DNA from: Takakia lepidozioides
Taxonomy: Eukaryota; Plantae; Bryophyta
DNA: 64,000 nt
NCBI GenBank assembly: GCA_030704615.1
Contig: CM060732.1
Span: 74,276,001 to 74,340,000, forward strand
Direction of reading: 5' to 3'
Shown here: piece by piece, positions 13,346 to 36,981 of the stretch
Position numbering within the stretch: position 1 is the stretch's first letter
Layout: each line of letters opens with the position of its first letter
Program-made: the position numbers and the translations under genes
The notes under the pieces: generated by a model
What the model was told of the DNA's origin: nothing
Seen by the model: the letters and a program-made list of their open reading frames with translations, nothing else
Databases searched by the model: none

Positions 13346-16300
13346 GGGGGGCAGCTAGGTCATGAGCCCAGCCCCATGAGCCTGGGAGCTGGGCTCACGT
13401 TTTAGGCACTAAGCATGAGCCCAAGGGTCAGGGTCTATTAGAAACATCACCTATTCCCGAGGACCACGGAACAGGGGCCTATTCCCGTTGGAATTGACAA
13501 CATCTTGAACTACACAACGCAATATGAGAATGCAGGAGCACTTTTGCGACATGAACGACAGCACAATCCATGCATATGCAATGAAAGGAGATGACCACGC
13601 AATACATGAGTTGCATAGGACCGGCATAGGAGTGAGTGATTGAATGAAGACATGCACTGAATTACAAGTATGTTATTGCTTCATTGTTACTCAATTTCCA
13701 CGCAAAGTATGACATGCAAACAAGCACCAAGGGGCATTGCACCTCCATGATTCTACTTAATCAGTCTCGGACCTGTCATGTTGCAGAAGAGTACAGACTT
13801 CATCAGGTGATAGCGTGGCCTGGTGAATATATTGGTCTCTTTTGGGGTCACAGCACATCATGCGCACAAAAATGAGTGCAGGTGCTTGCATGGAACCCAC
13901 GTCCCCTTCCTTCCCAGGCTGCCTTCACGCATGCAAAAAAAATCCGGACAAGTGCATTCCGGGCAGGTGCCAATCGTAACGTGATATGCCTTATCCTGAA
14001 GAAGCGAGCCCGAAGTGACCATTGTGTAGACACGGCCAAATCCAGCGGGGGGGGGGCTTCCATGGTAGATGTCACCCTTGCCTGCAAGATTCTGGCTAAC
14101 TCAACCTTGCAGTCGTGTTCCGCACCTGACTGCACACGCCGCACAGTCTTCCCATTCCTTTTGGTGGGGTGAGAATCAGCCAAAGGTGGGACCCCTGCAA
14201 ACGAAGTGAAAGTGGCCGATGCACGGCCAGTTGCATGAAGAATTGGACAGCGTGCTAGTCGGACTCTGTGGTCCTCCAACATGGCAATCTCCAGTGTTGA
14301 GAGGGAGGTTCCCGTCTTCACTGGCCAGACAGTTGGTGGGGGCCACTTCATTATCACGGACTCCCGCACGGCTCCCTTCACACAGATCTCAATATCATCG
14401 GGGCAGAACCAGAATTTATGAACTTTGGACTCTTTTGCCATATAAGGTCTAATCAAACTTGTGACTGCAGGAGCAAGAGTTCCACGAGAGCCTTTGCTGA
14501 TTTTGATTTTTCATTTTGCATAAGTTTTTTCCCGGATTGCAGTACATTTCACCTTCGAACCGCTCGGAGTACACTCGATGTGCCAGTCGCTATCATCACA
14601 GTCAGTCTCCTGCACAGGCGCAACCACATCCGAGGAACCACCTGGAACCGGCAAGGTGGCAAGCGATTGGGAGGGCTCCCATGAAGAAGGCGCTGCACCA
14701 AATGTCTCACCGCTTGAACCTCCCTGCATTGGAAACACCCGGGGCACGAAGAAATTCATTCTGTCGTGGCGACAGGAATCCCTATCTGCACCTGGAGGGG
14801 TGTCAAGTTTGTGTTTACATGTTCCAAACCTCTCATTGCCTTCCAAATGAGGAACCCTTGATTGCAGTGGAGATCCCACTGTGCACTTGTTGAGTGCCTA
14901 TGCCATCTTACTCGGATCACCTGATCTCTTGGCGGCCCTCAGCATCAATTCAGTGGTGTCTGGGCCTTTCCATCTTGCCCGTCCTCTTAGAAAATCTCGA
15001 TATCTGGTTTGTTGGCAAAGTGCTCGAACCATATCGTCCGTTGTGGCAGCATACAAATCCCTACCTGATTTTCGGACTGCCTTCCAGACATTGTACTGCA
15101 CCAATTCTGCCAAATTGCAGGATGGCATGTCCGCCATATCTTCAAGTGACATTTCCTGCAAAATAGCACCAAACAATGAATGTATGGAAGTGGAACTACT
15201 GCACAGAAGCAGAAGGTGAAGAATTGCAACAACAGCCATCCTTCAATGTGGTTGAAGAGAGCTCACCGTTGTCATGAAAGCTCCCCATTGTCTGTAGCGG
15301 AAATGCAAAAAGACAATCCAGTCATCCAATTCTTTCTGGAAGTCTTCACTTGCAGCCCCAGATGACACCCACCAAGCCCTGATCGCCGCGTACCTGCTAT
15401 CAGCCTTAGCCAGAGTTTTGCATTCTTGTACAGATGACAGAGCCTCCTATGCTCTGCTTGCAGATCAGGTCGTATGCACCTCTTTGTGTGCTTCTCCAAA
15501 GATTGTGTCCAGTGGAAAAGGCAAGTCCGCTCCCTGTTGGCCATAGGCACCTTCGGATCCCCCGAACCGAAAACTCGCCTAACCGCATTCCAGATTGTCT
15601 GCGCACTATCAGCCATGAACCCTGCGAAATTTGTGTCCGCAACACCATTGGCTCTCATGACAGATTTCAAGCAGTTCCACATTATCATTTGAGACTCCAT
15701 GTCCTCAGACTGCATGTCACATATGGCAATGGACATGAGGCGCTGATAAATTGGATCGTATACATGGCATGCCATGGTCGTCCAATTCTTTACTCGTTTG
15801 CAGTGGTCAAACATCAACCATGCCTTCGCCAAATCTCCACCAGGCTGCATGCGCTCGACAAGGGTGACACCGCTCCCCTGCCCAACTGTAGACATTTTGA
15901 ACAAATACATTTTACTCAATCCTTGTCCTGGGAATACACTGTCCTGAATGAAGTCGTACCGACTTTGACGTTTCAGGTCGAGAATGTTGTCCATGCAACC
16001 TCTGTTATCCAGACCCAATCTCAACGCATTCACCTGGTTCCGGATATTTGGAGAGTTAATAATGGAGAAGTGGTCCATCACTGCTTCAAGCGAACTCCCC
16101 TCCAGTTTCACACAGGACTGCTCATCCCCAGCCAGGATGTGTTTGACAAGAAATGTTTTGCTGGCGGCAAGCGCGATTGCAGACGGTTTTGCAGAGGGAG
16201 TGTTGTAGAATTCCTCCTTGAGAAGGGCCTTTGAAACGTCGATGCTTTCTCTACATCCCCCTTTCGACAGTGGATGCTCATGACTTCCAATATGTATGTA

Positions 16301-18040
16301 GGCACGGTCATCATCTTGCAGTGGTGTGTCACATTATACATACGGGCAGGGCACAGTGCTACACAGGATGGGGCCACCTTGCATTATATGCAGACGAAGG
16401 TGTTGTTGACTGGAGGGGCACGACCTGGCATGAAAGGATTGTCCGCAACACCCTCCCATTCAGTCTAATTTGAAGAGCTTTGGCCACGCCTCCCTGGGCA
16501 ATTGCTATTGAGGCACCGAACGTGACCGATGCAGACCGACCTCCGGAACAACAAAACATCGTCATTATGAATATTTGTAGTTTTCATTTTGCACCATGGG
16601 TGTCCATCGATCGTACTTCTTGTCCATTCCTTGCAAGAGACCCGCAAGCCCACCTGATAAGGTTGGTGGATCCAGTTCAAAACATAACATCCCCGTTGAA
16701 GGCCCCGGGCAAGTATTGAATCAATTAGCCGCAGCTCACTTTTCCTCCCACCAACGCCACAGAGAGCTTTGAGTTTCGGAATGACACTTCTGATCTCCTC
16801 AACGTCAGTGTCCCTTCCAAGAGTAGGTGCAGGGCCACCAGGAATCTCCGACACGTCGTCCTCCGAGGAAACAGACAACGTCACGAACGTCGTGGAGGGT
16901 GTTGCCTCATCCTTGACGACCACAAACCTTCGATCAAGAACAACAGAAGCCGCAGTGCCAGGTGTGACCATGGAGGCACCGGTCTCTTTTCTTTGAGCCC
17001 TATGCACCTAGTATCTACTGGCACAAACTTTCCATTCCTTACATACTCCCGATTTAGTAGGAAGGCAAAGGTGAGTCCGGGCCATACCACCGCCAGCATT
17101 ATAAATCTCTTCCAAAACATTGCATGTGCCGATTTTAAATTTGAATTGCGATGCGAGAACGTTTTCCCCAACCACAGCGAAGCCCTCGTCGTCCACGGAC
17201 GCACTCAAAGGAACACAGTGCTGGTCCACAGAGAAACAAGCTTCAGAATCCAAGGAGGAGGCCATTCATTTCTTGCAGGGACGAAGTGGCAACACACCAA
17301 TATTTGAAAAACAGGAAGTGGCTCAATGACACACTACACATAGTGCTTGTGTCTTGTCTCACAACAGTCGACCCCCTAAACTTGTTGAATTCCAATACAA
17401 GCATGTTCAACAGAGTTCATCCGGCCACATCCAATTCCAAATCAGACAAAGAGGAAACTGTGGAGAACAAGTCTATGATCCATGAAACCATGCATCAACC
17501 ATCAAAACATGGATTACACCATGGCGCCCGACCAGTGGAGAATTCAATGGATCGTTGCCGGCGTATTTACTCAAGGCCTCCCAACCACATCGGGAGCCTT
17601 GTACGAAATGTGGTGTGGCTTGCATGTCTTACAGCCATTGTCAAACACTGCATGGAATGATTTTGGACAAGTGCAATTTATTTCGCTCAAACAACCAAGG
17701 ATGTAGATGAATCGTATCGTTACGCAACATTAAATGGGGGCGGCCATGGAAACCCAACGAAGCCATTGGATTCTAAGTTTGAAGGCCAATGCCATTTCCC
17801 ATTCATTGTCCGCCCTGTTAAAGAAAAAAAATATGCCTTTGAATTTTCAAGAGTATCCCGGGAATGGTTTTATGGAGGCGGCCTCCTTACTTTTGTCAGA
17901 TCGTTACTACCCACACCCCAATGCATGAATAGCCATCGAAGTATGCCCCTGCCGCCGGTGCCGATAATTGCACTGCCACCCTTCCAAATGCTTCTGGAAT
18001 TACAGTGGGACACGTGGATGAACGGACTTTCGCCGTGTGG
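13346..18040 (-). mobile_element. Mutator-like (MULE) DNA transposon with decayed transposase (coding remnant ~17265-13790)
   Basis: Terminus ggggggcagcta...gagcccagcccc at 13346. Frameshifted minus-strand ORFs with a Cys/His N-terminal region (SVCIGHVRCLNSNCP, CPARMY), MULE-type DDE core (MFDH, FMADSAQ, CLFHW = CxxH, NLAE) and a C-terminal SWIM finger (CPECTCPDF...WVPCKH). Right terminus not found. Confidence 0.7.
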
Positions 18041-18890
18041 ATGAGCTCAACACATATCCTCTCATGACCCCATTCATTTGCCAATAGTTTGCATAGCAAG
18101 TGAAACTGTTGTTTGTAAACCGTCAAACTAGAGAGCTTGAGAGGCAGAGAGGAGAGTGTTTGATTACAGAGGAAAAAGAGAAGGAAGTCATTGTACTTCA
18201 CAAGCAGTAAGGAACGGCCTGTGCTGACTCGTGGAGGCACTGGTGGACTGCCTAAGGACTAGCATGTGGTCTTGAAGGCCGAATTTTGAAGCTCGTGGAG
18301 GGCGGTTTGAGAAGTATCTTCATGATATTCCCATGGTCATGTAAGTGAGGGAAGAGAGGAGAGGAAGAGTGTTGGGATGAGGGCATGCTGGGGTTAGGCA
18401 TTGCTTTAGCTTCTCTTCCTCGTAGTTTCCACCGTCTCATTAGGCCAAGACCTTTCCGTAGGTGGAGGCAAGAGTCAGTCCGGGTTTGGGCTGGGGTGTC
18501 CTTGCAGGAGCAACACCGTGGAGTTGTTTTTGGTGTGGGGGAGTTGTCGTTCTGATTTCTTGTGTTTGGATCCCCTCCATACCTGCATGCTTGACTGTGC
18601 GCCATGCTAGTTTTGTGTGGGCGCTTGTTTTTATAGGTGATTGGTCCGGATTTGATCACCGGCCAGTCCTAGAGCATGCTGTCGATGGTGAGGCTGGGGT
18701 GATGACCAGCCAGACCATAATTGTTTCTCCTGTGGTGAGGTTGGAGGTGATGACCAGCCAACCATAGGAGTGTTTGCGGTGGATGCAGGTACAAGTGTAG
18801 GCTATGTTAGGAATTTAGTATTCCAAACCATAAGCCGCAACAGGTTCTCTACCCGGTTACCTTGTGGAGAGGGGGTTAGGGACATGTTCA
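18040..18890 (+). repeat. Putative 5' LTR/leader of the DNMT-carrying gypsy element
   Basis: Non-coding, purine-rich block directly upstream of gag, ending ...gacatgttCA at 18890. No partner LTR found, so boundaries are approximate. Confidence 0.3.
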
Positions 18891-21789
18891 TGACCGGTTG
18901 AGTGTCAACACGGAGGTGCCACTAGTTGCTGGGGACAGTGCCGGTTCGAGCACTAGCGATACTAGTGGGTACACGAGACGAGGTGTGCGTTTAGGCCACC
19001 TTCACCTCCTGTGTCTTCTACGGAAGGTTCTGATTCGGATTGTGAATCAGGAGGACTCATACCGGCGGTGCAAGTTGTTTCTTTGCCATTGTTGTGGGAC
19101 ACAATGGAGGAGATGTATGGAGCTACCAAGGGGCCACGAAGGTACTCTAGGGCGGTGGGCACCATCGAGTTGGAAGATTTTATCCAAGAGTTTGATAGTT
19201 GGTGTGATTTGCAGCAAATGCGCAATCCACAACTATTTACGCCTTTCATGGCATAGAAGGGGCTGTTTCAGCACCTTGAGGGGCCGCCTATGGATGATTA
19301 CCATGAGTTCAGGCGGGGGCATGAGGTTGAGATCGAGGAGTGGAGGATGTACTGGTCACCCGACTATGTCTCCATCACTAGGGGCACTAGAGCCACGAGG
19401 GCAGTGGCTACACTTGCCGCTGCACCGGCAGCTTCAACAAGTAGCAGTGGGACTGGTGGTACAGTAGCTACGACGTCCACCCAAGCCACTACTGCACCAG
19501 CACTAGCACCCGTGCCTGCCTTCAACCCTGTTGTGGAGTTCTTCGAAGAGTTGAGAGGGAACTACTAAGGGGTGAGGACAGAGAAGTTGCGGAGCTTGCA
19601 AGAGTTCCAACGGAAGCCGACCGAGAGCTTGGGAGGCTTTCACTCGCATGAGGCCCTTGATAAATGTAACCCAAGGGGTTACGGAAGCTCAGGCAGTCCA
19701 ATTCTGGTATGGGATATTGGACAAGGAACTGAGGAGAAGGGTGCGGGATGCAACTCTCCTACAAGCGTCCTTAGCAAATGTGTTTTTGCTGGCAGAGCAT
19801 ATAGAGCTCAACATGGTGGAGGAACGAGTGGTCACGGTGGGATTTTCTAGGGAGACACCACGTGGTAGTGGTGCTCCTAGCCAACCACTACCTCAACGTG
19901 CTCAAGGCAACAAGGGGGCTCAGGTGAAGCTCAGGGAAGGGCAGAGAGGACCTCAGATGCAGGGGTCTCTCCCTTCATTTGCTGGCCAACAACGGGCGGA
20001 TGTGGTGTGCTGGACATATGGAGGACCCCATGTCAAGAAGGATTGCCCAGAGGGAGGCAAAGGGCCGGCACATGCATAGCCTGCACAGTTGCAGGGTGGG
20101 CATTGTGGCAAGCACGGGCATGGAGAGGCCCAGTGTTATGGTTTGCATCCTGAGTTGCGCCCAGGCCAGTTCCAAGGGAACAATGGTGGCCGGGGGCGAG
20201 GTGGAGCAGCCCAAAGAGGACGAGGTGGCCAGCCACAAGGTGCAGGCCAAGGGCAAGCTCAACATGGCCAAGGACGCGGAGGTCAAGGTGTTGACCAAGG
20301 CATGGCCAACCGGCTTCAGCAGCTAGAGCAGAGGCTTGCTGCCATGGCTATAGCTCAGGTGGTACCGGCTCTAAGGCCGGATGGTCCACCTCCTGCTCCT
20401 GAGGGAGGAGATATGGGAGGCATGGGATTCATGTGTGGAGCAGCACTACCACTAGTGCAGGTGGAGTCTGCTGCAGCCGTGACTTGAGGAGCAGCACGAG
20501 TTCCTGAGCCACGAGGTGAAGAGGTGGAGTTGGATCCACAGCGTGGGGAGGCAAGCCGTCAGGCTAGGCTTCCTCAGTCATTCACATTGGCGGAGACAGT
20601 GTCGACGCCATCCATGGCACCTAGTTCTCGCTCGACTGTTACCGAGGCGGAGGTTACTATGCCATTGGGGAGAGCTACACGGGTAGCACCACTACCTAGT
20701 GTCGCCAAGGCTACGGCAGCTAGTGTGCTGCTAGGAGCGGCCACATCTGTGTGCGAGGCTCCATTGTTCTCGGCTACCATGATTGCAACGCCGGGGGTAA
20801 GACCAGCTGAGGTGTTCAGGCTGGCAGCTACACTCTGTGAGAGTGAGGAGGTTACTTCATCTTCTGCGGAGATACTAGGAGGTGTAGTGCCGGAGGGATC
20901 CTCGGATTTGAGGGTCAAGACTGCCACGGCGGCGCCATGGCAAGCTGCAGCTGCCAGCTAGGCCAGCCATTGAGCGCGCCATGGTGACACCTGGAGTTGT
21001 CATGTTAGACAACCAGGATGGCATTTTCTATTTGAGTGGACCGGCAGGCAAGAGGTACCGGCCACTGCGGGTCTTGTTGGACTCGGGAGTTCAGCCACTG
21101 ATGCTAGGCAGAGCTGCTATTGCAGGCTTGGGCCTCACGGAGGCGGATATGGAGCCTTGTCCTTTCCAGATACACGTCTCTGGGAGGATCGGAGCAAGCT
21201 CGGAGCATGACACGGCGTGAGTTGGCTATCAGACTACGGCCGGATCACCCTACAGATGGCTCAGTGATGCGAGCCAAGGCCATTGTGATAGACGCGGTCT
21301 CATATGATGTCCTGGTTGGTGGGGCAGTGTTGTACCCCATGGGCTTCACCCTAGATTTTTGGGAGGAGTCAGCTTCCTATAGGCCTGCATGGCAGTCAGG
21401 GGAGGGCCGGCGTGTGTAGCTCCCTGTGACGTTCATAGGAGGAGTTGCGGTTGCCCAGCGAGGCAAGATGCCGACACTAACAACATTCACAGTGGCAGTG
21501 AGTTGGCCTAGAGAGTTGCTTGAGGGCAACGCTCATTCAGAGGATGTACCACCTCCGGGAGAGCAGGATGACATGTATGGTATGGCGGAGTTGCCTACCA
21601 TGGTTGCTCAGACTCCATTGTGGGGCACGAGCAAGGATTTGCAGCGGGATGCTGATCGACGGGTGCAACAAGCCTGGGTGGAGGCTTTTGTACCGTCATG
21701 AGAGGAGGAGAGTGCGGGGATTGTACCAGGACCACCTCAATTGTCTCCATTGGACACCACACCTATTGTGTGGCAGTATCCGGATGAAG

Positions 21790-22760
21790 GCATTTGTCTT
21801 CTGGACTTGTTTGGCGGGATCAGCACCGGATTGGCTGCTGTGTTACAGGCAGGTGTACGAGTTTGGCGTTACCTGTATGTGGAGAGGGATGAGACTGCAC
21901 GACGCGTTTTACTTCGCCATGTTGCTCAGTTGGTGCAGCGGTACCCTGAGTTGTTGTCAGTGTCTGCAATTCGTGGATATCAGCAGGCCTTGCCAGCAGA
22001 CCTTTCGTTGCTCGGGGCGTAGGATTTGGAACGGGTTGGCTCCATTGATCTGGTAGTGGCAGGTTGGCCCTGCCAAGGGCATTCATCAGCCGGGCATGGC
22101 AATGGATTGCGAGACTCGAGGTCGGGTCTGTTTTGGGAGATGGAGCAGGTTTTGCGCCACTTGCAGCTTCATTAAGCTGTATCTCCAGCATACATCTTGG
22201 AGAATGTGCCACTGATGAGCGATTCTCGGGCCAGGGTGATGGCCAATGTGCATCAAGTCCGGTCGTGGCTTGGGTCAGCAGTGTTGCTAGATGCAGCTAC
22301 AGTGGGGTCACGGGCTCATCGTCCACGGCTATGGTGGACTAACTTGATGCCACCCGCACTACTCAAGCGTGCATTTGATGGGATGCAGCGGCCAGCACAT
22401 CTCACAGTGGATAACATTCTAGACACATGGAGGCAGTCTCAGCGTGTGAGACACGATGACCGTTCGCCTTTGGCAGTGGTCAACAAGGTGGGTCAACCAC
22501 GAGCAGCATTACCTACACTGCTCAGCTTCCCAGGATCGCATGCTTTTCGGGATAGTGGACCTGGCCTCCTGTGGGATGCTCAGTTGCAGTAGTTAGTGGA
22601 GCCTAATGCTGACGAGCGTGAGTGGGCAATGGGTTTTACCACTGGTACCACGGCGGTGTCGTCCCTTTCTGAGGCATCACGTCGTCAAGTGTTGGGGCAA
22701 GCAATGGATCTCAATTGCTTGACCTGGATTATCAGCTTGGCTCTGGCTGAGCAACGCAGA
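21790..22760 (+). pseudogene. C5 cytosine DNA methyltransferase domain (DNMT3-like) within the retrotransposon polyprotein
   Basis: One reading frame contains motif I LDLFGGI (21801), motif II-like YVERD, motif IV DLVVAGWPCQ (PC at 22068-22073), SGLFWE, motif VI ILENV (22200), motif VIII AHRPRLWWTN (~22315) and motifs IX/X EREWAMGF...SRRQVLGQAMD. Only three nonsense codons interrupt it (22020 TAG, 22173 TAA, 22590 TAG). Confidence 0.9.
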
Positions 22761-24714
22761 GTGCAGAGTACACTTTCCTCAATGGTCTCTCTGCCTATCG
22801 AGACGGTACAGGCAGTGAGTGGGGGCGAGCATGTGAGGACCACGGGGTGTATGCATCCATGGCACACGTGGGAGGTGCTCGAGGTTCAGAGGGAGTTGGC
22901 AGCCAAGGTGGCTATGATGGATGAGGTTGGGGATTCTTCTCGGGTTGAGGAGGTCCTCAAGGATGAGATGATGGGGTAGGATGAGGCCTTGTCATTGACT
23001 GAGCAGGCAGGGAGTACTGCTCAAGAGGTTGCAACATAGCAACCACTGGACGCGTCCTCTACCTCTAAGCCCACTGGACTTAAGGTTGCAGTTACGGAGG
23101 ACAATTGGGAGCTTGACATTGGACCCATTGTCACGGAGGAGAGAGACGACGTATACGGCGGTTCCTGAGGGCTTACAGGAATTGCTTTGCCTTCAGTTTG
23201 AAGGACTTGGGAGCACTGAAGGGTCAAGAGATCCATATTGAGTTGGCCACTGACACGCCAATCTTTTGGAGACCCTATAGATACAGTGACATGGAGAGGT
23301 CTTTAATTCAGATGAGGACTCAAGATCTCTGGGAGGCAGGTTTGGTGGAGCTCTCTGGTGGAGAGTATGCTTCAGCCACAGTGATGCCAGCCAAGAAGGA
23401 TGTCTATGGCAATTGGACGGAGAGACGTATGTGCGGTGATTACCGGCCTGTAAATCGTCAGACCAAGTCCGATAAGTATGCCATGCCAACACCAGAGGAG
23501 ATCTTTGATGCCATCGGGCATGCTAAGGCCTTTAGCACTTTGGATTTACGATCCGGATATCACCAGTTGCCAATCAAGGAGGCGGACAAGCAGAAGACGA
23601 CATTCTGGGGGATCAATGAGCATGGCAAGGATTGTCTATATCAGTGGCGGTTCTTACCATTTGGGCTTAAGAATGCTCCTGCAGAGTTTCAGAGAGTCAT
23701 GGATAGGATTCTAGCAGGGGTGGACTTTGCTTGGTGCTACATAGATGACATCATCATCTTTAGTGTTACGATGGAGGAGCATGAGAGACACCTTCAGGTG
23801 GTATTGGAGCGCTTGAGAGCGCACGGATTGAATTTGTATCCGGGGAAGTGCAAATTTTTCCACAACCAGATTGAGTATCTGGGTCACATGATATATCCTG
23901 GAGGATTGGGGGTACAGCAGACTAAGGTAGAGGCCATTGCACAAAATTCCACGCCCCACGGATGTGAGCCGAGTTCGAGCTTTCATAGGGTTGGCAAACT
24001 ATTATAGACGGTTTGTCAAGGGATTTAGTACCATTGCAAAGGCTCTAACCAAGCTGACAAGGTGGACCCAGGAGTGGCAGTGGGAAGATGAGCAGGAACG
24101 AGCTTTTCAAGAGCTCAAGGCGAGGTTGACCTCGGCGCTTATCCTTAGACGACCTATCAGGGGGCGTCCCTTTCAGTTGCATACGGATTGGAGCATGTTG
24201 GGGCTTGGAGCGGTGCTCACACAGGTGGATGATGAGGGAAGAGAGTTCGTAGTGGCTTATGCTAGCCGCTCGAACAACGCTGCAAATGCTAAGTACAGCT
24301 CATATGAGGGAGAGTGCTTAGCTGCAGTGTGGGCCGTGGCACACTTCAGGTGCTATCTATACGACAATCTTTTCACCCTTGTCACGGATCACCAGCCACT
24401 CAAGTGGTTGATGGAGTCAGACAAGCTTACGGGGAAGCTTGCACGGTGGGCACTCATACTCCAGGAGTATGACTTTCAGGTTGTGCATCGACCAGGTTTG
24501 GTCAATCGGGATGCGGATGGATTGAGTCGCAATCCTTGCATGAGCCAGCAGGATGACACAGGAGCTCGGTGGCATGGTGAGACGGACGAGGAGATGGTGC
24601 CGGGATGGCACGCATCTGCATTTTTGTGTATCTTGGCATCGGGAGGTCAGGTTGGACCTACAACAGGGATGACTGTAGACGGAGTGTCTGAGGACCCTGA
24701 GGCTAGTGCTTACG

Positions 24715-27700
24715 ATCGAGGCTAATCCTGCTGCTACAACCCACTCTACTGGTGCTCTTGTTGTTACGAATCCTACTGTTGAAACTAATCTTGCTGCTAC
24801 GACTCATTCTGCTGATCATCTTTGTTGCTAACACCACTAACAGCGCGCTGCCTGGTAGTGTTGCCTTGCCAATGTCGCCATTACCTGAGCCCAACGCTCA
24901 TAATCCAGATCTTGTCGTTCCGTTAGGCTCGCTTGGTAATAGTGACTATGCTAACCTAGTGGAGGCAGAGGCGTGGTCACCAATTTCTGAGAGGTCTGAC
25001 AGTTCTCTAGACAGTTGTGACCCGGAGTATTACAATTTTGATAATTTTGTTGATCCTGGGCTTGAGTACTTTGAGAGTAGGCAACAAGCAACAAAATTGG
25101 AAAGGGATATTGAATTGTCACAAGAGGTAGATGACCTTATGTGTGAAGTCAGTGAGGAGGATCATCTTGGTTTGAACGTATAAAGAAGGCTGTTGACGGG
25201 GACCTTGTTACGTTAACTAGTCATCACGAGTCCTTGTTTGAAGGCCCTCGCTTGAGTCTATTGCAGTGGTTTCCATACTTACCATGCTGCCTCGAACGCA
25301 CACGGTTTGTCCCACCTGAAACAGGTTAGAATACTTAACACGCAAGCTGTTAAAATTGCGGGTCTGGGTTAGCTGAGCCTTACCAATGTTTGACTTGGCA
25401 TCATGGATAGACACCGCATGCCGAGCATGAAGATCCTCAACAAAGGTATCAAGATCAACCGGATTAGCAACAGTTTAGATAAGAGGGGTAGAATGCAAAG
25501 GAGAAACACACTTGTGACCATACAACAACTCAAAATGAGTCTTCTTGGTGCTAGCATGTACGGCGGTGCGATAAGAAAGAAAATAGGGGAAAAAAGGTAT
25601 CCCACTCCCTGGTAAGTTTGCCATTCTTCTCCAACATTCGGCAAAGAGTTTGGTTGAAGCGTTCCGTGAGACCATTGGTCTGGGGATGGTATGTGGCAGT
25701 GGTGAAATGCTTGATACCAAAGTTGAAACATACCACTGTGAGGAACTGGTTACAAAACTCCTTGCCCTGATCCGTTAGTATCTCCCGATGACACCCATGC
25801 CGCATAAGGATCTCATTGAAAAAGAACTGAGCTACAACATCACTAGCCTTGGAACGCAAAGGCCGGACCTCTACCCACTTAGTCAAGTAGTCAGTAGCAA
25901 TACAAAAGTAGCTTCGACCCTTTGATGTAAGTGCGAGGGGTCCTACCAAATCAATGCCAACACGAGCAAAAGCATGGGTGATAGACAAAAGCTGCAGCTC
26001 ATACGAGACTTCTCCAGGTGATAAATCCACCACACATACTAGCGCATGAATAAATCAACCAGGATCATCAAGAAGGCTAGACCAGCCCCAAGCAGCCAAT
26101 ATGCCATGAGAATCCAAGGCCAAGGGTTGCTGATCTGCACAAAGGAGGTTGAGAAGAGGAGTTGCATCAGTAGCAGCAAGATCATCCAAGGTGAGCATAG
26201 GCTTGCCGACAGGAAGATCAACCCGCGTAAGTACATCAGCGTTGATGTTTTCCTTGTCTTTCTTGTAGACTATATCCATGTTAAATTCTTGCAGAAACAT
26301 AACCCATCTAGCAAACCTGCCATGAAGCTCCCTTGGTTTAATAAGAGCCTTGAGTGGAAGGTGATCAGTCTCCACTACAAATCGGCTACCATGTAAATAT
26401 TGCCTGAAATGCTTCACACCAAAGATCAGGGGTAGACCCTCCTATCAGATATGGAATAATTCCGTTCATGACGATCTAGAGAGCGAGATGCATAAACTAT
26501 CACATGCTCTTTGCCTTCCACAACTTGATATAAGATTGCAGAAATAGCAATATCTGATGCATCAATCTGAAGTAAGAAAGATAATTCAAAGTTAGGAAAT
26601 ATCAAGATGGGAACTGAACAAAGAGCTTTGCGAAGAGTGTCAAAGGCAGCCTGAGCTGGAAGAAGGTCCATTCAAACCTGGCATCCTTGCATACACCTTG
26701 GTCAGGGGGTGAGCAAGTTTGACAAAGTTTTTGATGAAACGCCTATAATAGGAAGCCAGACCAAGAAATGATTTGATACAATGTTTATCCCTAGGAATAG
26801 GAAAGCCCCAAACAGACTCAAGCTTGGCAGGATCAGGAAGCAAACCATCTTTGAACATGATATGACCAAGAAAGTGCAACTCAGGCATAAATAACTCACA
26901 CTTCTTTGGCTTCACCTTGAACCCTGTTGTGCATACTGAAAACACGTTGCAGATCAGTCAAGTGAGAATCAATGGAGAGCAATGTTAGCACGACAACCTT
27001 CACACTTAGAGATGAACTCTGTGACATCCCGGTGAATTCCCAGCCAATAGTAAACCTCCTAGATGCGGGCCACGGTTTTCTTGATACCAAGGTGACCTGC
27101 ATACAAGGAACAATAGAAACGCTCCAATAAAGCATTCAGTTGGCTCCGTGGTGAGGGCAGCAAAGGCGTCCATGGTTCATTCATCATACCAATTTTTCAT
27201 CCCACACTCATCCAACATTCATCCATTCCTTTTTTTTTAAGCAGATTCCCTGAAGCGTGAGCAGATTGAAAACGTAAGCACATTACTGATGCGGACCCTA
27301 AAACCGAGGGAACAAGTGGGCCTATTGCCGTGGACGCGAACTCCACTGCAATGACGCAATCTCCGCTCCATCGGACCGAAAACAGACAGGCTCCAAGACG
27401 ACAATGTGGCACGAATGTGCGATGAAAAAACAATTAAAATCTTGACTTCCTGCCTATAACCCCTATCTATGACACCAGTAGCCACTAAGCAATGTTTGAG
27501 GGTGGTGAGTCTCCTCCAACCTTCAACTTCAAGGAAATGAGCAGTTGGACACAGGAAAGCTAGGCCAGATCTAACCACCTTCTAGGTAATGGTAAGAATG
27601 GTGATATTGACAGGTGCACAAACCAAGGTAGAATTTCTGGGAATAGCTATAGGCACCCCTGTCATGCCACCAGCATTAGGAACATGCCATTGATGTAAAA

Positions 27701-30240
27701 ACTGAAGATTAGGCTGAAATTTGTAAAATTCATTCCAATTGAGGTTGGAGTGGGAGTTTTGTTGTACCTCTTTTACCAGGGCCTGCACTTTGGAGAGATT
27801 TGGCTGTAGCTGACCCAACATTGAGTTTCACTGCCTTCAAAAGGACCACTTTCTCATGGCCCTCACCATTGTTGAAGCAAAAGGAATAGTCTGCCAGACT
27901 GATGGTGGCACCAGCCCTAGTCATCCAGTCTAGGCCTAGCAGGAATTGATCTCCAATAGTAACTCACCACAACCTCTTTCTTGTGAATTCTGATAGGTAC
28001 AGTGACTAGACCCAGAGGCTCATATCTGGATCCATCTACAATCAACACTTCAATACCAGATGCAAGGCATAACTTAAGACCAAGAACTCTCACAACATCC
28101 AAAGGTACAGTAGATATAGTACATCCTATGTCAATTACGCAGGAAAAGCTCAACTCATGGATATGACATTGGGCCATGAGAGGGCTGATCTATCGGCCAG
28201 CAGTCTGCCTGCTGAGAGGACAATGCAAGGCTTTGAACTAGTTAGTGGACAAAACAGCTTGAACCGAAACAAGAGAGATAGGGTTGGTGGATGGTGGACC
28301 TCTTGCCCCCTTCCCAAGAGATCTCTCTAGTTTAAAGGAGGGGAAGAACCACTAGCAGCTTTCTTGCTCTTGATCAGCTGTGGCAGCGCCCCTGCTCTGT
28401 CTGGACAATGCTTAGTCCAGTGTTCCAAGGATCCACAGATACAACATGCAACACGATTGGCTTCATAAGCTTGACCAGTCTGGGTATGACCTCTATTATT
28501 ACCACCTACTTGTCCTTACGCATGTCGAGGCTGCCAATGCTGCTAATGAGCCTGCATGGCAACAAACTGAATAGCTACAGACTCACTGAGACTTCCTATT
28601 GTGTTGGCCAATCCTTGAAGGGTAAAGTTGTCTATCTTGCATTGCATAACATGAGAAACATAGGGTGAAGATGTTGCATGCCAAGCTCGAAGCCCCCTGG
28701 AGCTTGAAACTTGGCATGGTGTTGCATTGATTTGCTGTCAGCCAAGTCAGCCATCTTAAGATTAACTTATGCTAACACAGTTTCGTCATTGACAAACTGA
28801 CGACGCTGAGCCTAGTTCTGAATAGCAAGGGATAATCTAAGGAGAGTCAATGATATTATCAACAGCAGGAAACTTGATATCCATGTAGTATTTCCATGTA
28901 GTAAGTCCTAGAAGATAGTTTGATAAAGCAATCTAGAGGCCTCTCAGGAGGTTTGAACAAGATCTTTGCCCACTCTACAAAGGATGCCCAATTGATGCTG
29001 GGATCATCCATGACTGTTGCATGCAGCAAGTCACGAGCTGACCCCTTCATGCTCATCCTAAAGATAGCCATTTTGAAATTCTCAGGGACACCATTCACAT
29101 TAGCAATCACCTCATACATCTGAAGATATCTATCAATGTCTTCTCCCATGTTATATTCTGGATAGGGCTAAGTGGTTAACTGGGGGATCAAGTGACAGGG
29201 CAAGCTATGGTTCATGTGTCCAGGAAGAACAGATCCATGAGTAGGGCAGCAGGAAACCATGGCCTGAGTTTGGGCAGTAGCACCACTAGCATGCACATGA
29301 TTAGCAGCAGATGTGGAACTGTGACCCAAAATATTACTGGTTGACCTTATGGCAGTAGAAGAAGGCAGACTTGTATGTGACTTGCCATACCCATGGGGAG
29401 GATATGTGACATCATATTTTGCTGAGCAGCAGGATGGACTTACTGCAAGTGAGGCTGAGGCATTCCACTCATGGGAATAGTGGGTGCCACTCCCACTGGC
29501 TGAACTGACATGGACCCTATGTTATGGACAGGAGCAGTGCTAATACTACTAACATGCATGCCTACAGGCTGGCTGGTAGCAACTCCTGGTGGTGTGCCCG
29601 CTTGCTAGACAGGGAGGGCTCCCACATAGGTGCTAGCACTAGGAACCCGATTGGCAATCGAGCTAGAGGATGCTTGCGTCATGACCCCTCTACTTTGAAC
29701 AGGACCAGAGACACTCAACAGAGGAGCACCACCCGAATGCAAACCCGAACCCACAGGCAAAGACATCCCTCCCCCGAGAGTGGGATTAGGGAGATTCATG
29801 ACATGCATTACATTAGAGTCCACACTAGTCATGACCTGGGCCGGCATACCGCTCGTAGTTGCCCGAACATCCAAGATCGGCCTATGGACAAAATCCGGAC
29901 TTTGCAACTATGTCGTGGGCTTGCTGTGCCGAGTCACTACGGCCGCATCAGCTCGAACGTAGACAAGAAAATTCGTAGGATCAAACATTCCAAACTCTTC
30001 GGGTGAGAGAACCAAACTCTCATCTCTCACCCTTGCAACAACACCATCATGTAACGTGGCTCTAGCTCTCCTTCTAAAGTACCAGTGTTCAACAAGACAT
30101 CATTGGCCAGCATATTACTTTCCTGCAGGTTGTCCGATTCTTTACTTATCCCAGGTACGCCTTCACCACGTGACTCCCTCGAGCTATCCATGAGCCTCTG
30201 TCTACCATATCTCAGCCAAGCAGTCTTACCTAGCATACAA
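24715..30240 (-). mobile_element. Second Ty3/gypsy element (decayed, rearranged): gag - protease - dUTPase-like - partial RT - RNase H - integrase
   Basis: gag 29149-28859. Knuckle CCICGSLEHWTKHC at ~28400-28447. Protease VIDIGC 28177-27917. RT C-terminus KPKKCELF...FLGH 26945-26640. RNase H (QIDASD, ETDHLPL, NADVLTR). Integrase core (GIDLVGP, LTDQGKEF, YHPQTNGLTER) 26033-25551. PBS-like tggtgttgttgcaaggg at 30046-30030 next to a TG edge at 30050. Confidence 0.85.
27430..27660 (-). pseudogene. dUTPase-like remnant in the second gypsy element
   Basis: VVRSGLAFLCP...VATGVIDRGYRQEVKILI resembles dUTPase motif 3 (GVIDxDYRGEI) and the preceding TGL...P strand. Motifs 4 and 5 are missing. Confidence 0.55.
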
Positions 30241-31923: not shown

Positions 31924-34165
31924 TCACCAATAATCCCCGCATGAACAAACCCCATCTTGAAAGTGGTGAAAACGGTTGGCATCTCTTACAACGACTGCTC
32001 GATCAACAATCTTCGAGATGAACTTGATGGCGGTGTGGCAGTCACCACACACCCGAAGGTTCTTAATGACACGGATAGGCATCCCAGGAGGTGTGCTGAT
32101 GAGCCCAAAAGCAATGGCCAGCTTCTCACTGTGGTGGCAAAGAGAAACTGCCTTCTGCTCCTCGTCTAAATCATGCAAGACATAACGTGTGTCAGGCACA
32201 TATCCAGCCTCCTTCATCCAACAAGACAGTCGGTTCAGCTCAGCATGGATTTCCTCAATTTGTGGATGCATTTTATCTTCTACTGCAAATGTATGGACCC
32301 GGTTGTTGACCTCAATGCAGCTGCGACCTGGCTCCTTTCTGACACCTCTGTCCTCCATCATTTTTCTTACCTTGGCTTTGTCATCCCACCTGCCAGCTGC
32401 AGCATAGATATTTGAGAGAAGCACATAAGCTGCAGTATGTTCTGGATCCCACTTGAGAAGGCATTTTGCAGCATGTTCTGCAAGGTTCACATCACCATGG
32501 ACTCTGCAGGCACCAAGCAATGCACCCCACACTGAACCATCTGGTTCAATGGGCATTTTCTTAATTAACTCCTCTGCCTCCTCCAATCGTCCTGCACGTC
32601 CAAGAATGTCCACCATACAGCTAAAATGCTCAACTGTAGGCATGAGGCCATGGTGTTGGCTCATGGAATCCAAGTAGTGTTGGCCTTCCTCCACTAGGCC
32701 CACATTGCAACTGTAGGAGAAGAGATATAAATGTGATACCATTGGGCTGTCAGCCTTCCTGTTGCATTTGTTCAAATAGTTGGATAGCTTCCCTACCATA
32801 TCCCTGCTGGGCATATCCTGCAATCATCGCATTCCATGATATCACATCGCGTTCACCTATTTTGTCGAAAACTTGACGTGCACCTTTCAAGCTCCCACAT
32901 TTGGAATACATTGTAACCAGTGTATTCTCCAGATTAATATATGAAGGAACTCCAGCTTTAATGATGTCAGCATGGACCTGCCTGCCCTTTTCCAGGGCTC
33001 CTAGGTTAATACAGGCATTGAGAACAGAAATGAACGTCACCTTGTTGTGGGTTACCCCTTCCTGTTGCATTTGCTCATAGATTTTGAAAGCCTCTTCTCC
33101 AAACCCGTACTGAGCATATCCTGATATCATTGCACTCCATGAAACCACATCTTGATCAGCCATATTGTCAAAAACTTGACGTGCATTTTTCATGCTCCCG
33201 CATTTAGCATACATTTCTATAAGGGCAGTCTCCAAATTAATATGTGATGCAATTCCAGCTCTGATGATGTCAGAATGGACCTCTTTGCCCTTTTCTAGGG
33301 AGCCTAGGCTGGCACACGCATTTAGAACACAAATAAACGTTACCCTGTTGGGTGTCACCCCCTCTTGCTGCATTATCTCATAGAGCTTGAACGCATCCAT
33401 TGCAGCACCATATTGAGCATATCCTGCGATCAATGCACTCCATGATACAACATCTTGCTTAGCCATGTTGTCGAACACTCGACGCGCATCCTTCACACTC
33501 CCGCATTTGGCATACATGTCAACAAGGGCAGTCTCCAAGTTGATATGTGATGCAATTCCAGCTTGAATGATGTCAGCATGGACCTCTTTGCCTTTTTCCA
33601 CAACTCCTAAGGTGGCACACGCACTGAGCACACAAATGAATGAAACCCTGTCGGGCGTTATCCCTTCTGATTGCATTTGCTCATAAATCTTGAAAGCCTC
33701 CTCAGAATGCCCACACTTGGCATATCCTGCCATCATTATAGTCCATGTAAATAAATCTCGTTCAGGCATTTTGTCAAACACTTGGCGTGCATCCACCAAG
33801 CTCCCACATTTGGCATACATGTTGACAAGGGTGCTGAGAAGAAACTTGTTTGACTTCAATCCAGTTTGGATAATGTGGGCATGCACCTGCTTCCCCCCTG
33901 CTAGGTCTTTCATTTTGATGCACTCCTGTAAGAGACAGACGTAAGTATTGGAGTCTCCCGACTTGCGTTGTTGGTTCAAAATGTGCAGCGCCTGTTTCAG
34001 TTGTCCTGCCTTACATAGTGTCCTGACATCCCTGAAAGCCCCAGACAAGTTCTTTGTGGTTCCTTCTCCTGCTATTCCTTCAGAAGCAGTGGTGATGGTG
34101 AAGGTGCTCCCCCTGCCATCAGTCTGCTGTCCAACAAGTACCTGTGCCTGATTCAGACCTTTCAT
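31924..34165 (-). pseudogene. PLS-E-DYW class PPR (organellar C-to-U editing factor), disrupted
   Basis: P-L-S triplets in 34165-32750. E1/E2 and DYW domain with PG box, HSEKLA, CGDC and terminal DYW in 32700-31924. In-frame TGA at 32752-32750, then QPNGITFISLL, then a frameshift at ~32715. No obvious transit peptide. Confidence 0.8.
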
Positions 34166-36981
34166 TCTGCATGACTCCAAACTTTCAACTCAAAACCCAC
34201 TTAATATGCATCAAAGCTCGTAGACGCTCAATAAAGGACCTCTTTATGATGACAGGCTCTTGCAGCACAATTATGGGTTAGAAACCAAACTATCCAGCCT
34301 TAGTTGAAAAACTTGCATCCTCATCAAAGTGATACCCGTTGAGTTGTCAGCCTGGTGCTGCATGGTGTACATCAGCATTAAAACCATCATCAGATTGTAC
34401 TCGACCTTGTGTCATGGCAGCTAGCTCTGCTTTCACCCAAGGAGGATTTGACAAACTCTCAATCCAAAGGACCTTCTTTGAATGCTTATGTAGAAAATCA
34501 TGAGATCTTGGACTTTTCTGTAAAGAGCAACAAGGGGTAGCTGAGCAGCTAGAGCTTCAACCACAGCCTCACAAAGACCACTCTACAGCCGCCAAGGTCA
34601 TCTCAAACAACATACCACGACAAAGCTACTTCAATGCCACTGTGGCTTAGCAACTGAGAGAAAAAGCACTACAGTAAGTGTAAAAGACGAATATATTTCT
34701 TGGTATTACTGCAACCATGTTCCAGTCTTCATAGACTCACCATATAAGACCTGTTGTCCCACCACTGCAAGGGATCTGACATGAACTCCTGCCACAGTCG
34801 TCCTATGCCTATGGATTGACCTGCATGCAAACACCACCCAAACAAGTCTTTAGGCATCTCTTAATTGCCTTATGCTGTACACTTGAGGGCATAGTTTGAA
34901 GGCAATGCTCCTGCAGCCAGTTGTGGGTTTTTTACCCACTGGTGTATGATAACTCAGCTCCAGAACACCATAGTCCCTGTGAATAACCACCGACAATCTC
35001 GTTGTAGGTGATTAGAATTTTGATGTAGACATCATGCCAGCAGCAATATTGATTCCAGCACTGCCACTCTAGCCCACAATCACACAGGTGTGACACATGG
35101 ATGCAATTGCACTGCCAGAGAGAGAGAGAGAGTTCCACGAGGAGCAAGAGCTTAAGGGGACGAGTGTGGAACAAGAACCAACACCCCGGAAGTCCTACAG
35201 AAAGAGAGAGACGTTCATTGTATGAAAAATCTGCACCCACAATCCTCAACAAGGGCGGCTAACGTTCACAAGGAAGCGAGACATCAACCAGTGCCTCTCG
35301 TACTTCTCTGTGAATCCTTGTCCATCCGTAAGTGTGACTGGATAATTGTGGTTTTACACGGCTCTAGTAGGATCACATCTATTCGTATCACGTCTATGAG
35401 AAGTAGCTTTCTACATTAAGGAGTGAGCTCAAAATGTTGCACCTCATGGAACTCTGCAGCCAGTTTTCCAGTAGACCGTGGAGGCAGCCCTGTCCAAAGT
35501 CCACCAAACTTCCGCCTTGAGAGTAAATCCCGGTGGCGACATTCTAGCCATGCAAATAAATGCCCGTCTCTCTCTCTCTCCCCCATGCAATCGATTGAAA
35601 AAATATAAATAGGAGATGAGGAGCTCACGTTCACCTACAGCCCTTGCATGTGCCAACTTCTTCGACCAAAATGGGCGTAGCACTAGCTGGTGTGTGTCAA
35701 GGGAAATTCGGGAACTGTCTCGCTCGATCACACCAGAATTTGCTTGAGAAACCACGTAATGCACGAGGAGCTTGATATCTCTACCTTCCTTTGACTTCTC
35801 TGGAGACTTGGGAGGCATCAAAGCCATCGCTAAACCGGGGAGAGAGACAGCTTCCGCGAGATCTCGCCCGGCCTTTTCCCGGGCAGCTCTAAATGGATGA
35901 ACGCCCTCGTTCATGGATGACAAGTGGGAAAGAGCGGGAATGAGTTTTGAATGAGCGGGACTGTCTCTCTCCCGCTCAGACGTTCCACGACAGCTATGCG
36001 GCAGCTGCTTACTGCATTCGATGCGTAGTGATTGACGTACTTTTCTCCACCACAGCTATGGCGGCAGCTGCTGGCTCCGTTGTGCTTCCTTGCATGCGAG
36101 GCCTGATCGTTCACATGCGTAGTGATTGACGTACTTTTCTCCCCCACAGGTCGTAGATGTTCTTCCTTCCCTTCTTCACCTCCGTCGCACATGCTTGCGT
36201 GCGAGACTGTGGTAGGAGACATGCGAAAGCAGGGGGGCATTCACGTGCAGAATGATTCACATTGGAGTTGCACCACAGGTCGTAGGGTAGATGTTCTTCC
36301 ATAGGTCGATCTCCGTGTAAGCTTGAGAGGATTGAAGAGGAGGAGGAAATATGAGTGTTGTGGTCAATATGCATCAGCGGCGCACCATAGCCAATGGCAG
36401 GCAAAATCAAGATCCCAACACAGGTACTGCTTTTCTCTATCTTTCTCGCACAATATCGACGTTAAGGGATTGCCTCCAACCTGGGCTACTGAGATGGAGG
36501 CTGTAAAATCTTGTCAAAGGAGACGTTCCCAGTTTCAGTTGTAGCTAAGGTAACTTTGCAAACAAAAATTGCATTAAGTGACAATTGAAATCCTAAGGAA
36601 TGTCTTGCTTGGTCCGCGCAGCTGTTGGGGTGAAAGATTTAACGCCAAAGAAAACGTGCCCGAAACTTGAGAAGTCTATTCAGGAGGTGCTCAATCATGC
36701 CCGAAACACTTCTGGTACGTACGGGTCACTCTTTTGTGTCCGAGAATGGCTTTCTTAGGGTCTTGTAGCGCGAGATGCTCCATGAAATTCATGTTCAAAC
36801 AATGCAGTACTTGGAGCCCTGCCGTGAAATTGCAACGATCATTTTCTTAACCTAGACTCGTGAGTTGTCTCACTGTTCCAAGGTGAAAGTGCGGCATCCT
36901 TGACCTCGGTACTGAGTAGCAACTGTGGTTGAGCTGGAGTTGAAATGATACTCACTAGATTGGGAATGTGCTCCATATTCA

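Follow-up and report, generated by a model that had tools for sequence, protein, structure and literature searches.

A DNMT3-like methyltransferase and a conserved stop codon in a Ty3/gypsy retrotransposon family of bryophytes

Why a transposon should carry a transposon-silencing enzyme has been a question since 2018, confined to algae that are hard to manipulate, and retrotransposon-borne DNMTs are as such already known (de Mendoza et al., 2018). The question is raised anew by 64,000 nucleotides of Takakia lepidozioides (contig CM060732.1, positions 74,276,001 to 74,340,000; hereafter the window), where a decayed Ty3/gypsy copy bears a DNMT3-type C5 methyltransferase (MTase) between protease and reverse transcriptase (RT). 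A land-plant host, as given in a preliminary description of this DNA, is supported since all 8 of the 8 matches of a CPL3-like host gene in the window come from mosses and liverworts only, and since PLS-DYW PPR and MADS-box genes are also present.

The window element and its methyltransferase

The window element (Table 1) is a member of a high-copy Ty3/gypsy family. At its 5' side, contig depth climbs within the bin 18136-18419, where it goes from about 400 up to 4e5-9e5, these depths being summed and not to be taken as copy number, and loose contig ends lie at 18169 and 18214; the start motif TGTCA(C/T)G of Sphagnum-type relatives is absent from 17001-19100. The Gag region, collinear with Marchantia Mp4g09160 from the first Met of the latter, holds two zinc-knuckle-like C/H motifs, gave no match in a Pfam search and is disrupted by stops and frame breaks. 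Regarding the protease, Asp_protease_2 and gag-asp_proteas are matched only weakly by the proteases of relatives, while Pfam recognizes RVT_1 (23117-24007, E=8.8e-33) and RT_RNaseH (23931-24722, E=2.9e-35) in the window itself. The copy is cut at its 3' side at about 24670-24703, with integrase, PHD and 3' repeats missing: similarity to relatives stops at about 24636-24668, and at 24703 the depth drops and one contig continues with different letters. The integrase at 25.6-26.0 kb is part of another gypsy element on the opposite strand, and no LTR pair was found within the window.

Table 1. Features of the window element (positions in the window)
Feature	Position	Strand	Basis or remark
5' non-coding part (terminal A repeat and leader)	18150..19103	+	contig depth; left end approximate
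Gag region of ORF1	19104..20900	+	collinear with Marchantia Mp4g09160, 44-60% identity
Aspartic protease	20951..21400	+	LLDSG at about 21074; frame break near 21174
DNMT3-type C5 cytosine methyltransferase	21762..22751	+	Pfam PF00145; PDB profile search; relative's model
Conserved ORF1 stop TAG, then CAA CCA (CAR-YYA)	23037..23045	+	predicted readthrough site into ORF2
Reverse transcriptase, YIDD at 23738	23126..23940	+	Pfam RVT_1; 66% identical to L056 ORF2
RT connection, RNase H, start of linker towards integrase	23937..24703	+	Pfam RT_RNaseH

The Gag-PR-RT-RH-INT order is present in two intact relatives (L056 and L081), the window copy being devoid of INT through truncation. In the PDB, the RT-RH of L056 is nearest to Ty3 (1.5e-75), ahead of 8r0s (6.7e-48), which we take to be a caulimovirus-type polyprotein, and of gammaretroviral enzymes (5e-30), so that the Ty3/gypsy assignment already proposed is supported by sequence comparison.

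The reading frame initially described as shared from 21120 does join the C-terminal half of the protease, the MTase and the linker, but it starts at about 21174 and the LLDSG half of the protease lies in another frame. Six stops (21417, 21699, 22020, 22173, 22590 and 22977), of which 22020, 22173 and 22590 fall inside the MTase, look like the decay then invoked for every nonsense codon, whereas the TAG at 23037 is conserved in relatives. Nor is the break near 23135, formerly placed at about 23140, the single frameshift, as others occur near 19630, 20900-20950 and 23940. A programmed frameshift near 23135 was rejected because the relatives remain in frame there (46 of 61 linkers keep one frame, by eye) and other host contigs are without this break.

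With stops read as X, the MTase motifs follow one another canonically in one frame, namely LFGG (21807), WPCQ (22065), SGLF, ENV (22200), RPRLWWTN (22320), ERExAMGF and LGQAM (22692), and the domain matches Pfam DNA_methylase PF00145 (E=3.8e-12, 46.7 bits for a cut-off of 22), as anticipated. Motifs I-X are unpermuted, i.e. not in DRM-like order, and the catalytic C, E and R-x-R are retained; among 23 aligned homologues chosen without motif patterns, P110, Q112, E/N155, R194 and N201 are near-invariant. In profile searches against the PDB, DNMT3A/B/C rank first (about 1e-19 for DNMT3), followed by DRM (1e-9 to 1e-6) and M.HhaI (2e-5), with no DNMT1 or CMT among the 53 matches. The structure model of P0001, a relative 72% identical to the window domain, finds DNMT3A/B/C in all 34 rows listed (TM up to 0.84 by target). 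Sequence and modelled fold thus support a DNMT3-like enzyme.

Codon comparisons across copies, proposed earlier as a check, yielded MTase dN/dS values of 0.084 (L056-L081), 0.13 (L056-L055) and 0.073 (window-L004), with the 15 unsaturated pairs out of 21 spanning 0.05-0.27 and dS being close to saturation. On these ratios the domain is under purifying selection, and under weaker constraint than RT (0.03-0.10).

A conserved stop between methyltransferase and reverse transcriptase

The in-frame stop is kept at the position of 23037 in 60 of the 61 loci having both domains, which were all selected through the MTase, belong mostly to one family with redundant assemblies, and form 53 clusters at 98% and 7 at 80%. 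It is followed by CAR-YY in 54 of them, compared with 2 of 477 decay stops as background; in the other seven, CAR underwent a C-to-T step (four loci), the stop was displaced by an insertion (two) or it was lost (one). The complete CAR-YYA, defined as a readthrough context of the kind used by plant viruses (PMC2754532), is found at the stop of the window element and at 6 further loci, spanning 6 of the 7 families (<80% nucleotide identity). CAA CCC follows the stop in 45 of 61 loci; the large Sphagnum-type family reads CAA CCC ATG, departing from the consensus at the last base and offering the ATG as a possible reinitiation Met. Motif counts in the total of 81 loci are biased because these were fetched by WPCQ/ENV patterns, and the absence of the 23037 stop from the 40 differences listed out of 821 between the window and host contigs is no test of fixation.

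Intact relatives encode Gag-protease-DNMT in ORF1 and, after one in-frame stop, RT-RNaseH-integrase-PHD in ORF2. In L056, an ORF1 of 1369 aa, a single TAG and an ORF2 of 1047 aa share the same frame, and the first Met of ORF2 comes at residue 117, beyond the RT start at 51; L081 displays the same two-ORF, one-stop arrangement. A single continuous gag-pol polyprotein broken by decay only, as first envisaged, is not supported for this lineage. No conserved RNA structure was found 3' of it (z -0.3 to -3.6, inconsistent). Retrotransposon recoding has reportedly been treated by Gao and co-workers in 2003. In-frame stops whose 3' context sets a protein ratio are known from the TMV replicase (UAG-CAR-YYA), SIRE1 pol/env, and MuLV and Tca2 gag/pol (PMC2754532, PMC2194720), where they come after Gag or Pol and not, as here, after Gag-protease-DNMT.

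By comparison among loci, this stop is a conserved family feature and not decay, and translational readthrough of the UAG into the RT frame is very probable. Because the stop follows Gag-protease-DNMT, the MTase is predicted at Gag level and, being encoded just 5' of the stop, is likely much more abundant than RT; the element would thus likely control the enzyme dose relative to RT.

Relatives, termini and precedents

Marchantia, Calypogeia, Riccia and Sphagnum contain relatives at about 60-74% identity, and the recurrence of one DNMT order in dozens of independent loci, and in several named genomes, bears out that the MTase is ancestral to the element, a family trait rather than a later, single-copy insertion with its own boundaries. 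Chlorophytes harbour a sister arrangement, RT-RH-DNMT-INT-PHD, and further-out single-ORF PR-DNMT-RT forms exist (P0330). Marchantia, Calypogeia, Klebsormidium and chlorophyte members are known here from proteins, some of them NCBI models in which splicing may have been predicted. The MTase and RT trees both split arrangement A (DNMT before RT) from arrangement B (RT-RH-DNMT-INT-PHD), all being quick trees with plant host DNMT3 sequences left out; the rows labelled N in one of them are mostly decayed arrangement-A copies and just three other elements, and in another P0088 bears the label A wrongly. None of 71 candidate viral contigs bore the element.

Regarding the ends, relatives show split repeats of the form A-internal-B-A-B (A at 5', B or B-A-B at 3') rather than two complete identical LTRs: A-coding-B-A-B is complete in L050, the 3' B-A-B is seen in L018 and the B-A junction in L006, L056 and L081. 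The A-internal-B form of 18 of the 26 loci having plus-strand B may be a recombination product or a short-read collapse of B-A-B. Relatives have TG...CA ends and a polypurine tract, a purine run preceding B, and the target duplications of 9 full-length relatives are exact 4-bp ones in 6, with one mismatch in 2 and absent in 1. No tRNA primer-binding site was found, as no TGG follows A in 5 of 5 copies inspected, which suggests an unusual replication route.

The closest precedent is KnitGypsy-Dnmt3 of Klebsormidium nitens, likewise a gypsy element with an intronless DNMT3-type domain under purifying selection and DIRS-like A-coding-B-A-B repeats (de Mendoza et al., 2018; PMC5890265). The kinship suspected earlier is supported: K. 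nitens KFL_013780020 (P0411), 36% identical to the window domain, was found by profile (E=6e-86) and has, as in the window, a zinc knuckle and protease motif followed by DNMT; in quick trees of the MTase with one distant outgroup, P0411 sits on a long branch within an open fork. Its DNMT is, however, described in one ORF with RT (reviewer reply) where the window family has the conserved stop; it is reported from an alga only, whereas the window family is high-copy in land plants; and the integrase of the latter carries a PHD, a term absent from the main text of PMC5890265. SymbioDIRS-Dnmt3 and SymbioLINE-Dnmt (PMC5890265) and the EpiLTRs of Cymbomonas and Euglena (bioRxiv 10.64898/2026.05.21.726589) also encode cytosine methyltransferases but belong to other retroelement classes, the EpiLTR DNMTs being DNMT4-related and accompanied by DAM and chromodomains. 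Animal DNMT3A/B and plant PpDNMT3a/b (PMC6453930) share the unpermuted DNMT3-type catalytic domain; the element DNMT is without DUF3444, PWWP or ADD and about 20-25% identical to animal DNMT3. For the plant gypsy lineages of REXdb (Phygy, Selgy, Tcn1, Chlamyvir, OTA), the main text of Neumann 2019 does not contain 'PHD', and no mention of a methyltransferase domain was found in it; likewise, no report was found in the literature of the land-plant/chlorophyte range, the readthrough junction or the PHD for DNMT-bearing gypsy elements.

Putative function and competing explanations

In the proposed mechanism, ORF1 would supply Gag, protease and the DNMT3-type MTase, and leaky UAG readthrough would add RT-RNase H-integrase-PHD; the MTase, packaged at Gag-like levels, would methylate the cDNA of the element itself, either ahead of integration or while it takes place, and the PHD at the integrase end would steer integration through histone H3 tails. 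New copies would presumably benefit from being pre-marked, hence hidden from host surveillance or less harmful to the host. The enzyme is very probably catalytically active on DNA; the own cDNA is its probable, though less assured, main substrate, and the whole reading, from leaky stop through Gag-level packaging to cDNA methylation, we hold to be slightly favoured. With a CpG o/e of 0.52, the window element falls inside the range of its neighbours (0.32-0.65), which gives self-methylation no support, intact relatives being higher (0.55-0.78); CpG/CHG depletion is not distinctive for the element.

This absence of element-specific CpG loss would suit an enzyme active in the nucleus instead, on the chromatin of the insertion site, of other copies of the family, of rival elements or of host loci, as would Gag-side expression, which would provide far more enzyme than a single cDNA requires, and the chlorophyte arrangement, which puts the DNMT beside integrase-PHD. 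Such a role is nevertheless unlikely, as both arrangements keep the DNMT fused to particle proteins, and it has neither a targeting domain of its own nor DUF3444, which host plant DNMT3 carries (PMC6453930) and for which it gave no Pfam match.

Less likely again is the production of ORF2 by reinitiation, splicing or a separate transcript, which would leave the remaining reading unchanged. A Met does lie 3 codons past the stop in the Sphagnum-type family (5 in L059, 14 in L055) and in Ogre splicing takes place between Gag-PR and RT (PMC6317226), but L056 and L081 have no usable Met, the gap is of zero length, the frame is unchanged and every family retains CAR.

A non-catalytic or non-DNA role, such as DNA binding in split-repeat replication or RNA methylation, is about as improbable, if not slightly more so. 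The ends without tRNA primer site would be in line with it, and chlorophyte-type copies often carry WECQ instead of WPCQ (EC in 72 of 150 representatives, PC in 42). While no methylation was obtained in yeast with the Klebsormidium domain, a result its authors called inconclusive, Symbiodinium DIRS-DNMT3 domains performed de novo CG methylation there (PMC5890265). Against this role, the SAM-binding FGG and the catalytic residues (Cys, Glu and the two Arg) persist across about 35-75% identity, and the fold is that of DNMT3, not DNMT2.

Finally, the heavy decay and truncation of the window copy might suggest that a host or bacterial MTase gene landed in this copy alone, or that the assembly is at fault. 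Both are refuted by the recurrence of the same order across independent loci, besides which contigs from the host's own runs cover both MTase and RT, and the sole bacterial-genome contig that matched (L081) is an entire retroelement, likely a eukaryotic contaminant. The 2173-nt contig X12 may, at a guess, be RNA.

Returning to the packaged, cDNA-directed enzyme, a broader and tentative scenario, which we regard as possible rather than probable, is that a single DNMT3 has been passed down, from chlorophytes as far as mosses and liverworts, within an ancient clade of PHD-tipped gypsy elements present across green plants, and has been relocated between the Pol and Gag sides; the land-plant readthrough stop would have made it a high-copy virion enzyme pre-methylating insertions, and the split, primer-less ends would reflect a distinct replication route. 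Since copies occur in Marchantia polymorpha, a genetic model with methylation mutants, where Mp4g09160 and Mp8g17980 are long Gag-PR-DNMT frames annotated as hypothetical genes, the question is directly testable. Element copies may push up the number of DNMTs counted in bryophyte genomes and mislead DNMT3 phylogenies there and, if this broader scenario is true, such elements would give these genomes a mobile second source of de novo methylation.

The window copy and its surroundings

Translation with X in place of stops placed the C5-methyltransferase motifs in canonical order and in a single frame between protease and reverse transcriptase (RT), in agreement with the preliminary description, and Pfam matched DNA_methylase in the window (E=3.8e-12), as well as RVT_1 and RNase H (RH) in the element. 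The frame shared by the methyltransferase (MTase) motifs stood but the single frameshift claimed alongside it did not, since breaks occur near 19630, 20900-20950, 21174, 23135 and 23940. Several stop codons further mark a decayed copy, which ends at ~24670-24703 with its own integrase (INT) missing; no LTR pair was found within the 64-kb window. An integrase at 25.6-26.0 kb was rejected as the element's own, being on the opposite strand and 36% identical to the family's integrase.

In the host's own runs, contig depth between 18.2 and 24.7 kb exceeds that of the flanks about a thousandfold, for MTase as for RT, which shows that the DNMT element family is high-copy in the host, this depth not being convertible to copy number. 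Among the 40 of 821 differences listed, the stops at 19254, 20077, 20485, 22173 and 22977 are absent from nearly all other host copies and the breaks near 19630, 21174, 23135 and 23940 from many; both therefore represent private decay of the window copy. Besides DYW-type PPR and MADS genes, the window holds a CPL3-like host gene with top matches in mosses, then liverworts (8/8; 32-63% identity over parts); these genes point to a land-plant host, likely a bryophyte.

Features located in the window
Feature	Position	Strand	Remarks
Repetitive region	13851-17900		Depth ~400; 353-aa minus-strand ORF, DDE transposase-like by eye, no Pfam match
Frame break	~21174	+	Inside protease
Second decayed gypsy element	24707-29500	-	RH and integrase, no MTase match; adjoins cut end of DNMT element
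PLS-E-DYW PPR gene	31927-34189	-	Divided between two frames that overlap around 32750-32820, through a frameshift, a short intron or a misassembly
Near-identical 144-bp tandem repeats (~ten)	56243-57838		610-codon open frame on minus strand around them
MADS-box ORF, intronless, 407 aa	58844-60064	+	~144 bp internal repeats at 3' end

The stop between ORF1 and ORF2

Of 173 metagenome loci the best 80 were examined, together with one genome contig. The MTase had been proposed to lie within one gag-pol polyprotein, a view not supported by the intact metagenome locus L056 and genome contig L081, where a single in-frame TAG splits ORF1 (Gag-PR-DNMT) from a same-frame ORF2 of 1047 aa (RT-RH-INT-PHD); locus L055 has the same layout with one break in ORF1. 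MTase end and RT start are both present in 60/81 loci and in the window, giving 61 loci that group into 53 clusters at a nucleotide identity of 98% and into 7 families at 80%; the 21 short or deleted loci were dropped. TAG or TAA followed by CAR-YY stands 90-150 nt upstream of RT in 54/61, and the remaining seven comprise four with one C-to-T step in CAR, two with an insertion-displaced stop and one with the stop lost. As background, this context follows 2/477 decay stops within domains. Seven loci belonging to 6 families carry the complete CAR-YYA, the window with its stop at 23037 being one of them; UAG with CAR-YYA is the signal that TMV uses for readthrough, at 11-32% in reporter assays in plants (available text of PMC2754532 and PMC2194720).

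In addition, the first ORF2 Met in L056 and L081 lies only well within RT. Counting against readthrough, the largest family has CAA CCC ATG 3' of the stop, which departs from the consensus at one base and places a Met nearby. Regarding database proteins, 17 measurable ones of 25 checked terminate 27-164 aa past motif X with no RT, as would be expected of ORF1 products; the 8 others did not fit the motif pattern used for this measurement. The MTase of the land-plant gypsy-DNMT3 branch is likely under readthrough control.

Relatives, domain arrangements and element ends

With only ~8000 candidates scored in each of two runs, at least 157 MTase relatives of similar length and at least 56 longer ones were recovered, with named members in Marchantia polymorpha, M. 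paleacea, Riccia sorocarpa, Calypogeia fissa, three Sphagnum species, Closterium and Chromochloris; the top named matches are 66-72% identical to the window, and Marchantia Mp4g09160 is collinear with it from first Met through MTase. No vascular-plant name appeared among the named matches listed, which are a minority and so no evidence of absence. When 1.84 billion representatives were searched with a profile, 610 clusters (50% identity) came out at E<=1e-30, names being retrieved for 4 of 20 checked from the top 150 (Klebsormidium nitens, Closterium NIES-68, Scenedesmus and Cymbomonas). L081, a 9285-bp contig bearing an entire DNMT-gypsy element in a GTDB cyanobacterial assembly, is likely eukaryotic contamination; protein P0021, labelled Obscuribacterales MAG, resembles this case. 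Protein P0171 (1053 aa) combines PHD, the same DNMT3-type domain and PCIF1_WW, an adenine-methyltransferase-related family, and possibly comes from a two-methyltransferase element.

In the PDB ranking with a 23-sequence profile, DNMT3A/B/C came first (~1e-19), then DRM (1e-9 to 1e-6) and M.HhaI (2e-5), with no DNMT1 or CMT in the 53 matches, and the AlphaFold model (pLDDT 86) of P0001, a relative at 72% identity, resembles DNMT3A/B structures. The element proteins are without the DUF3444 present in host plant DNMT3 (PMC6453930, available text). Catalytic motifs are nearly invariant among aligned homologues; the MTase gives pairwise dN/dS values of 0.05-0.27 in the 15 pairs, out of 21, that were free of saturation, and RT gives 0.03-0.10. 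In 35 decayed members of a single family the medians for MTase and RT are 0.56 and 0.44, respectively.

In quick trees with one distant outgroup, the window MTase falls into a group (99% SH-aLRT) with those of Marchantia, Calypogeia and Sphagnum. The RT-RH-DNMT-INT-PHD arrangement forms one clade (100% in the MTase tree, 99% in the RT tree) containing Scenedesmus, Chromochloris and Cymbomonas proteins from chlorophytes. Klebsormidium and Closterium have the protease-DNMT order of the window but branch at an open fork. From the sequences, this would be compatible with a single DNMT capture and later relocation within the element. As a single ORF, the RT-RH-DNMT-INT-PHD arrangement dominates distant relatives (P0153-P0170, P0271-P0414); many such proteins have WECQ in motif IV and two a G-patch.

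In the Sphagnum-type family, so named since locus L004 clusters with a Sphagnum protein, a 340-bp repeat A with a TGTC start lies at the element 5' end and a 115-bp repeat B with a GACA end after a purine tract. Locus L050 reads A-internal-B-A-B, matching the DIRS-like repeats stated for KnitGypsy-Dnmt3 of Klebsormidium (PMC5890265, available text), and the L018 3' end reads B-A-B; a single B terminates 18/26 loci with plus-strand B, a form that could reflect recombination or assembly collapse. Exact 4-bp target duplications flank 6/9 full copies, and no tRNA-type primer site followed A in the 5 copies checked. The B-A junction recurs in the distant L056 and L081, as CACGACA-NN-TGTC (L050:10378-10972, L056:8550-8670, L081:6940-7070), resembling joined integrase attachment sites carried within the 3' end.

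Proposed mechanism and standing of the element

Readthrough would yield Gag-PR-DNMT several-fold above RT and integrase, the protease would free the MTase inside the particle, the freed enzyme would methylate new cDNA and the PHD would guide integration. The nearest solved relatives of this PHD are the CHD4, PHF12, PHF21A and KDM5 fingers, which prefer unmethylated H3K4. Two observations count against the mechanism: element-specific CpG loss was not found (CpG o/e 0.52 vs. 0.32-0.65 in neighbours), and the Klebsormidium domain showed no methylation in yeast (PMC5890265, available text). The data show architecture, conservation, selection and fold; for the whole predicted chain of readthrough dose, MTase release, cDNA methylation and PHD guidance, we lean slightly in favour.

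In the literature compared (including PMC9033089, PMC6317226, PMC11244446, PMC8557442, PMC12344493, PMC11982613 and PMC8616336, each in part), no report was found of gypsy-DNMT3 in land plants, the Marchantia gene ids or readthrough, coverage being thin for subscription papers and Repbase; a prior description may exist, since most of these lie outside it. The available text and three supplements of de Mendoza 2018 (PMC5890265) name no land-plant element, and its figures or main supplement may show domain order or PHD. A 2026 preprint mentions 'streptophytes (Gypsy-DNMT3)', citing earlier work, 'moss' and 'Marchantia' being absent from its main text as available. The window element is real and belongs to the land-plant branch of the known gypsy-DNMT3 elements, with a likely readthrough-controlled MTase.
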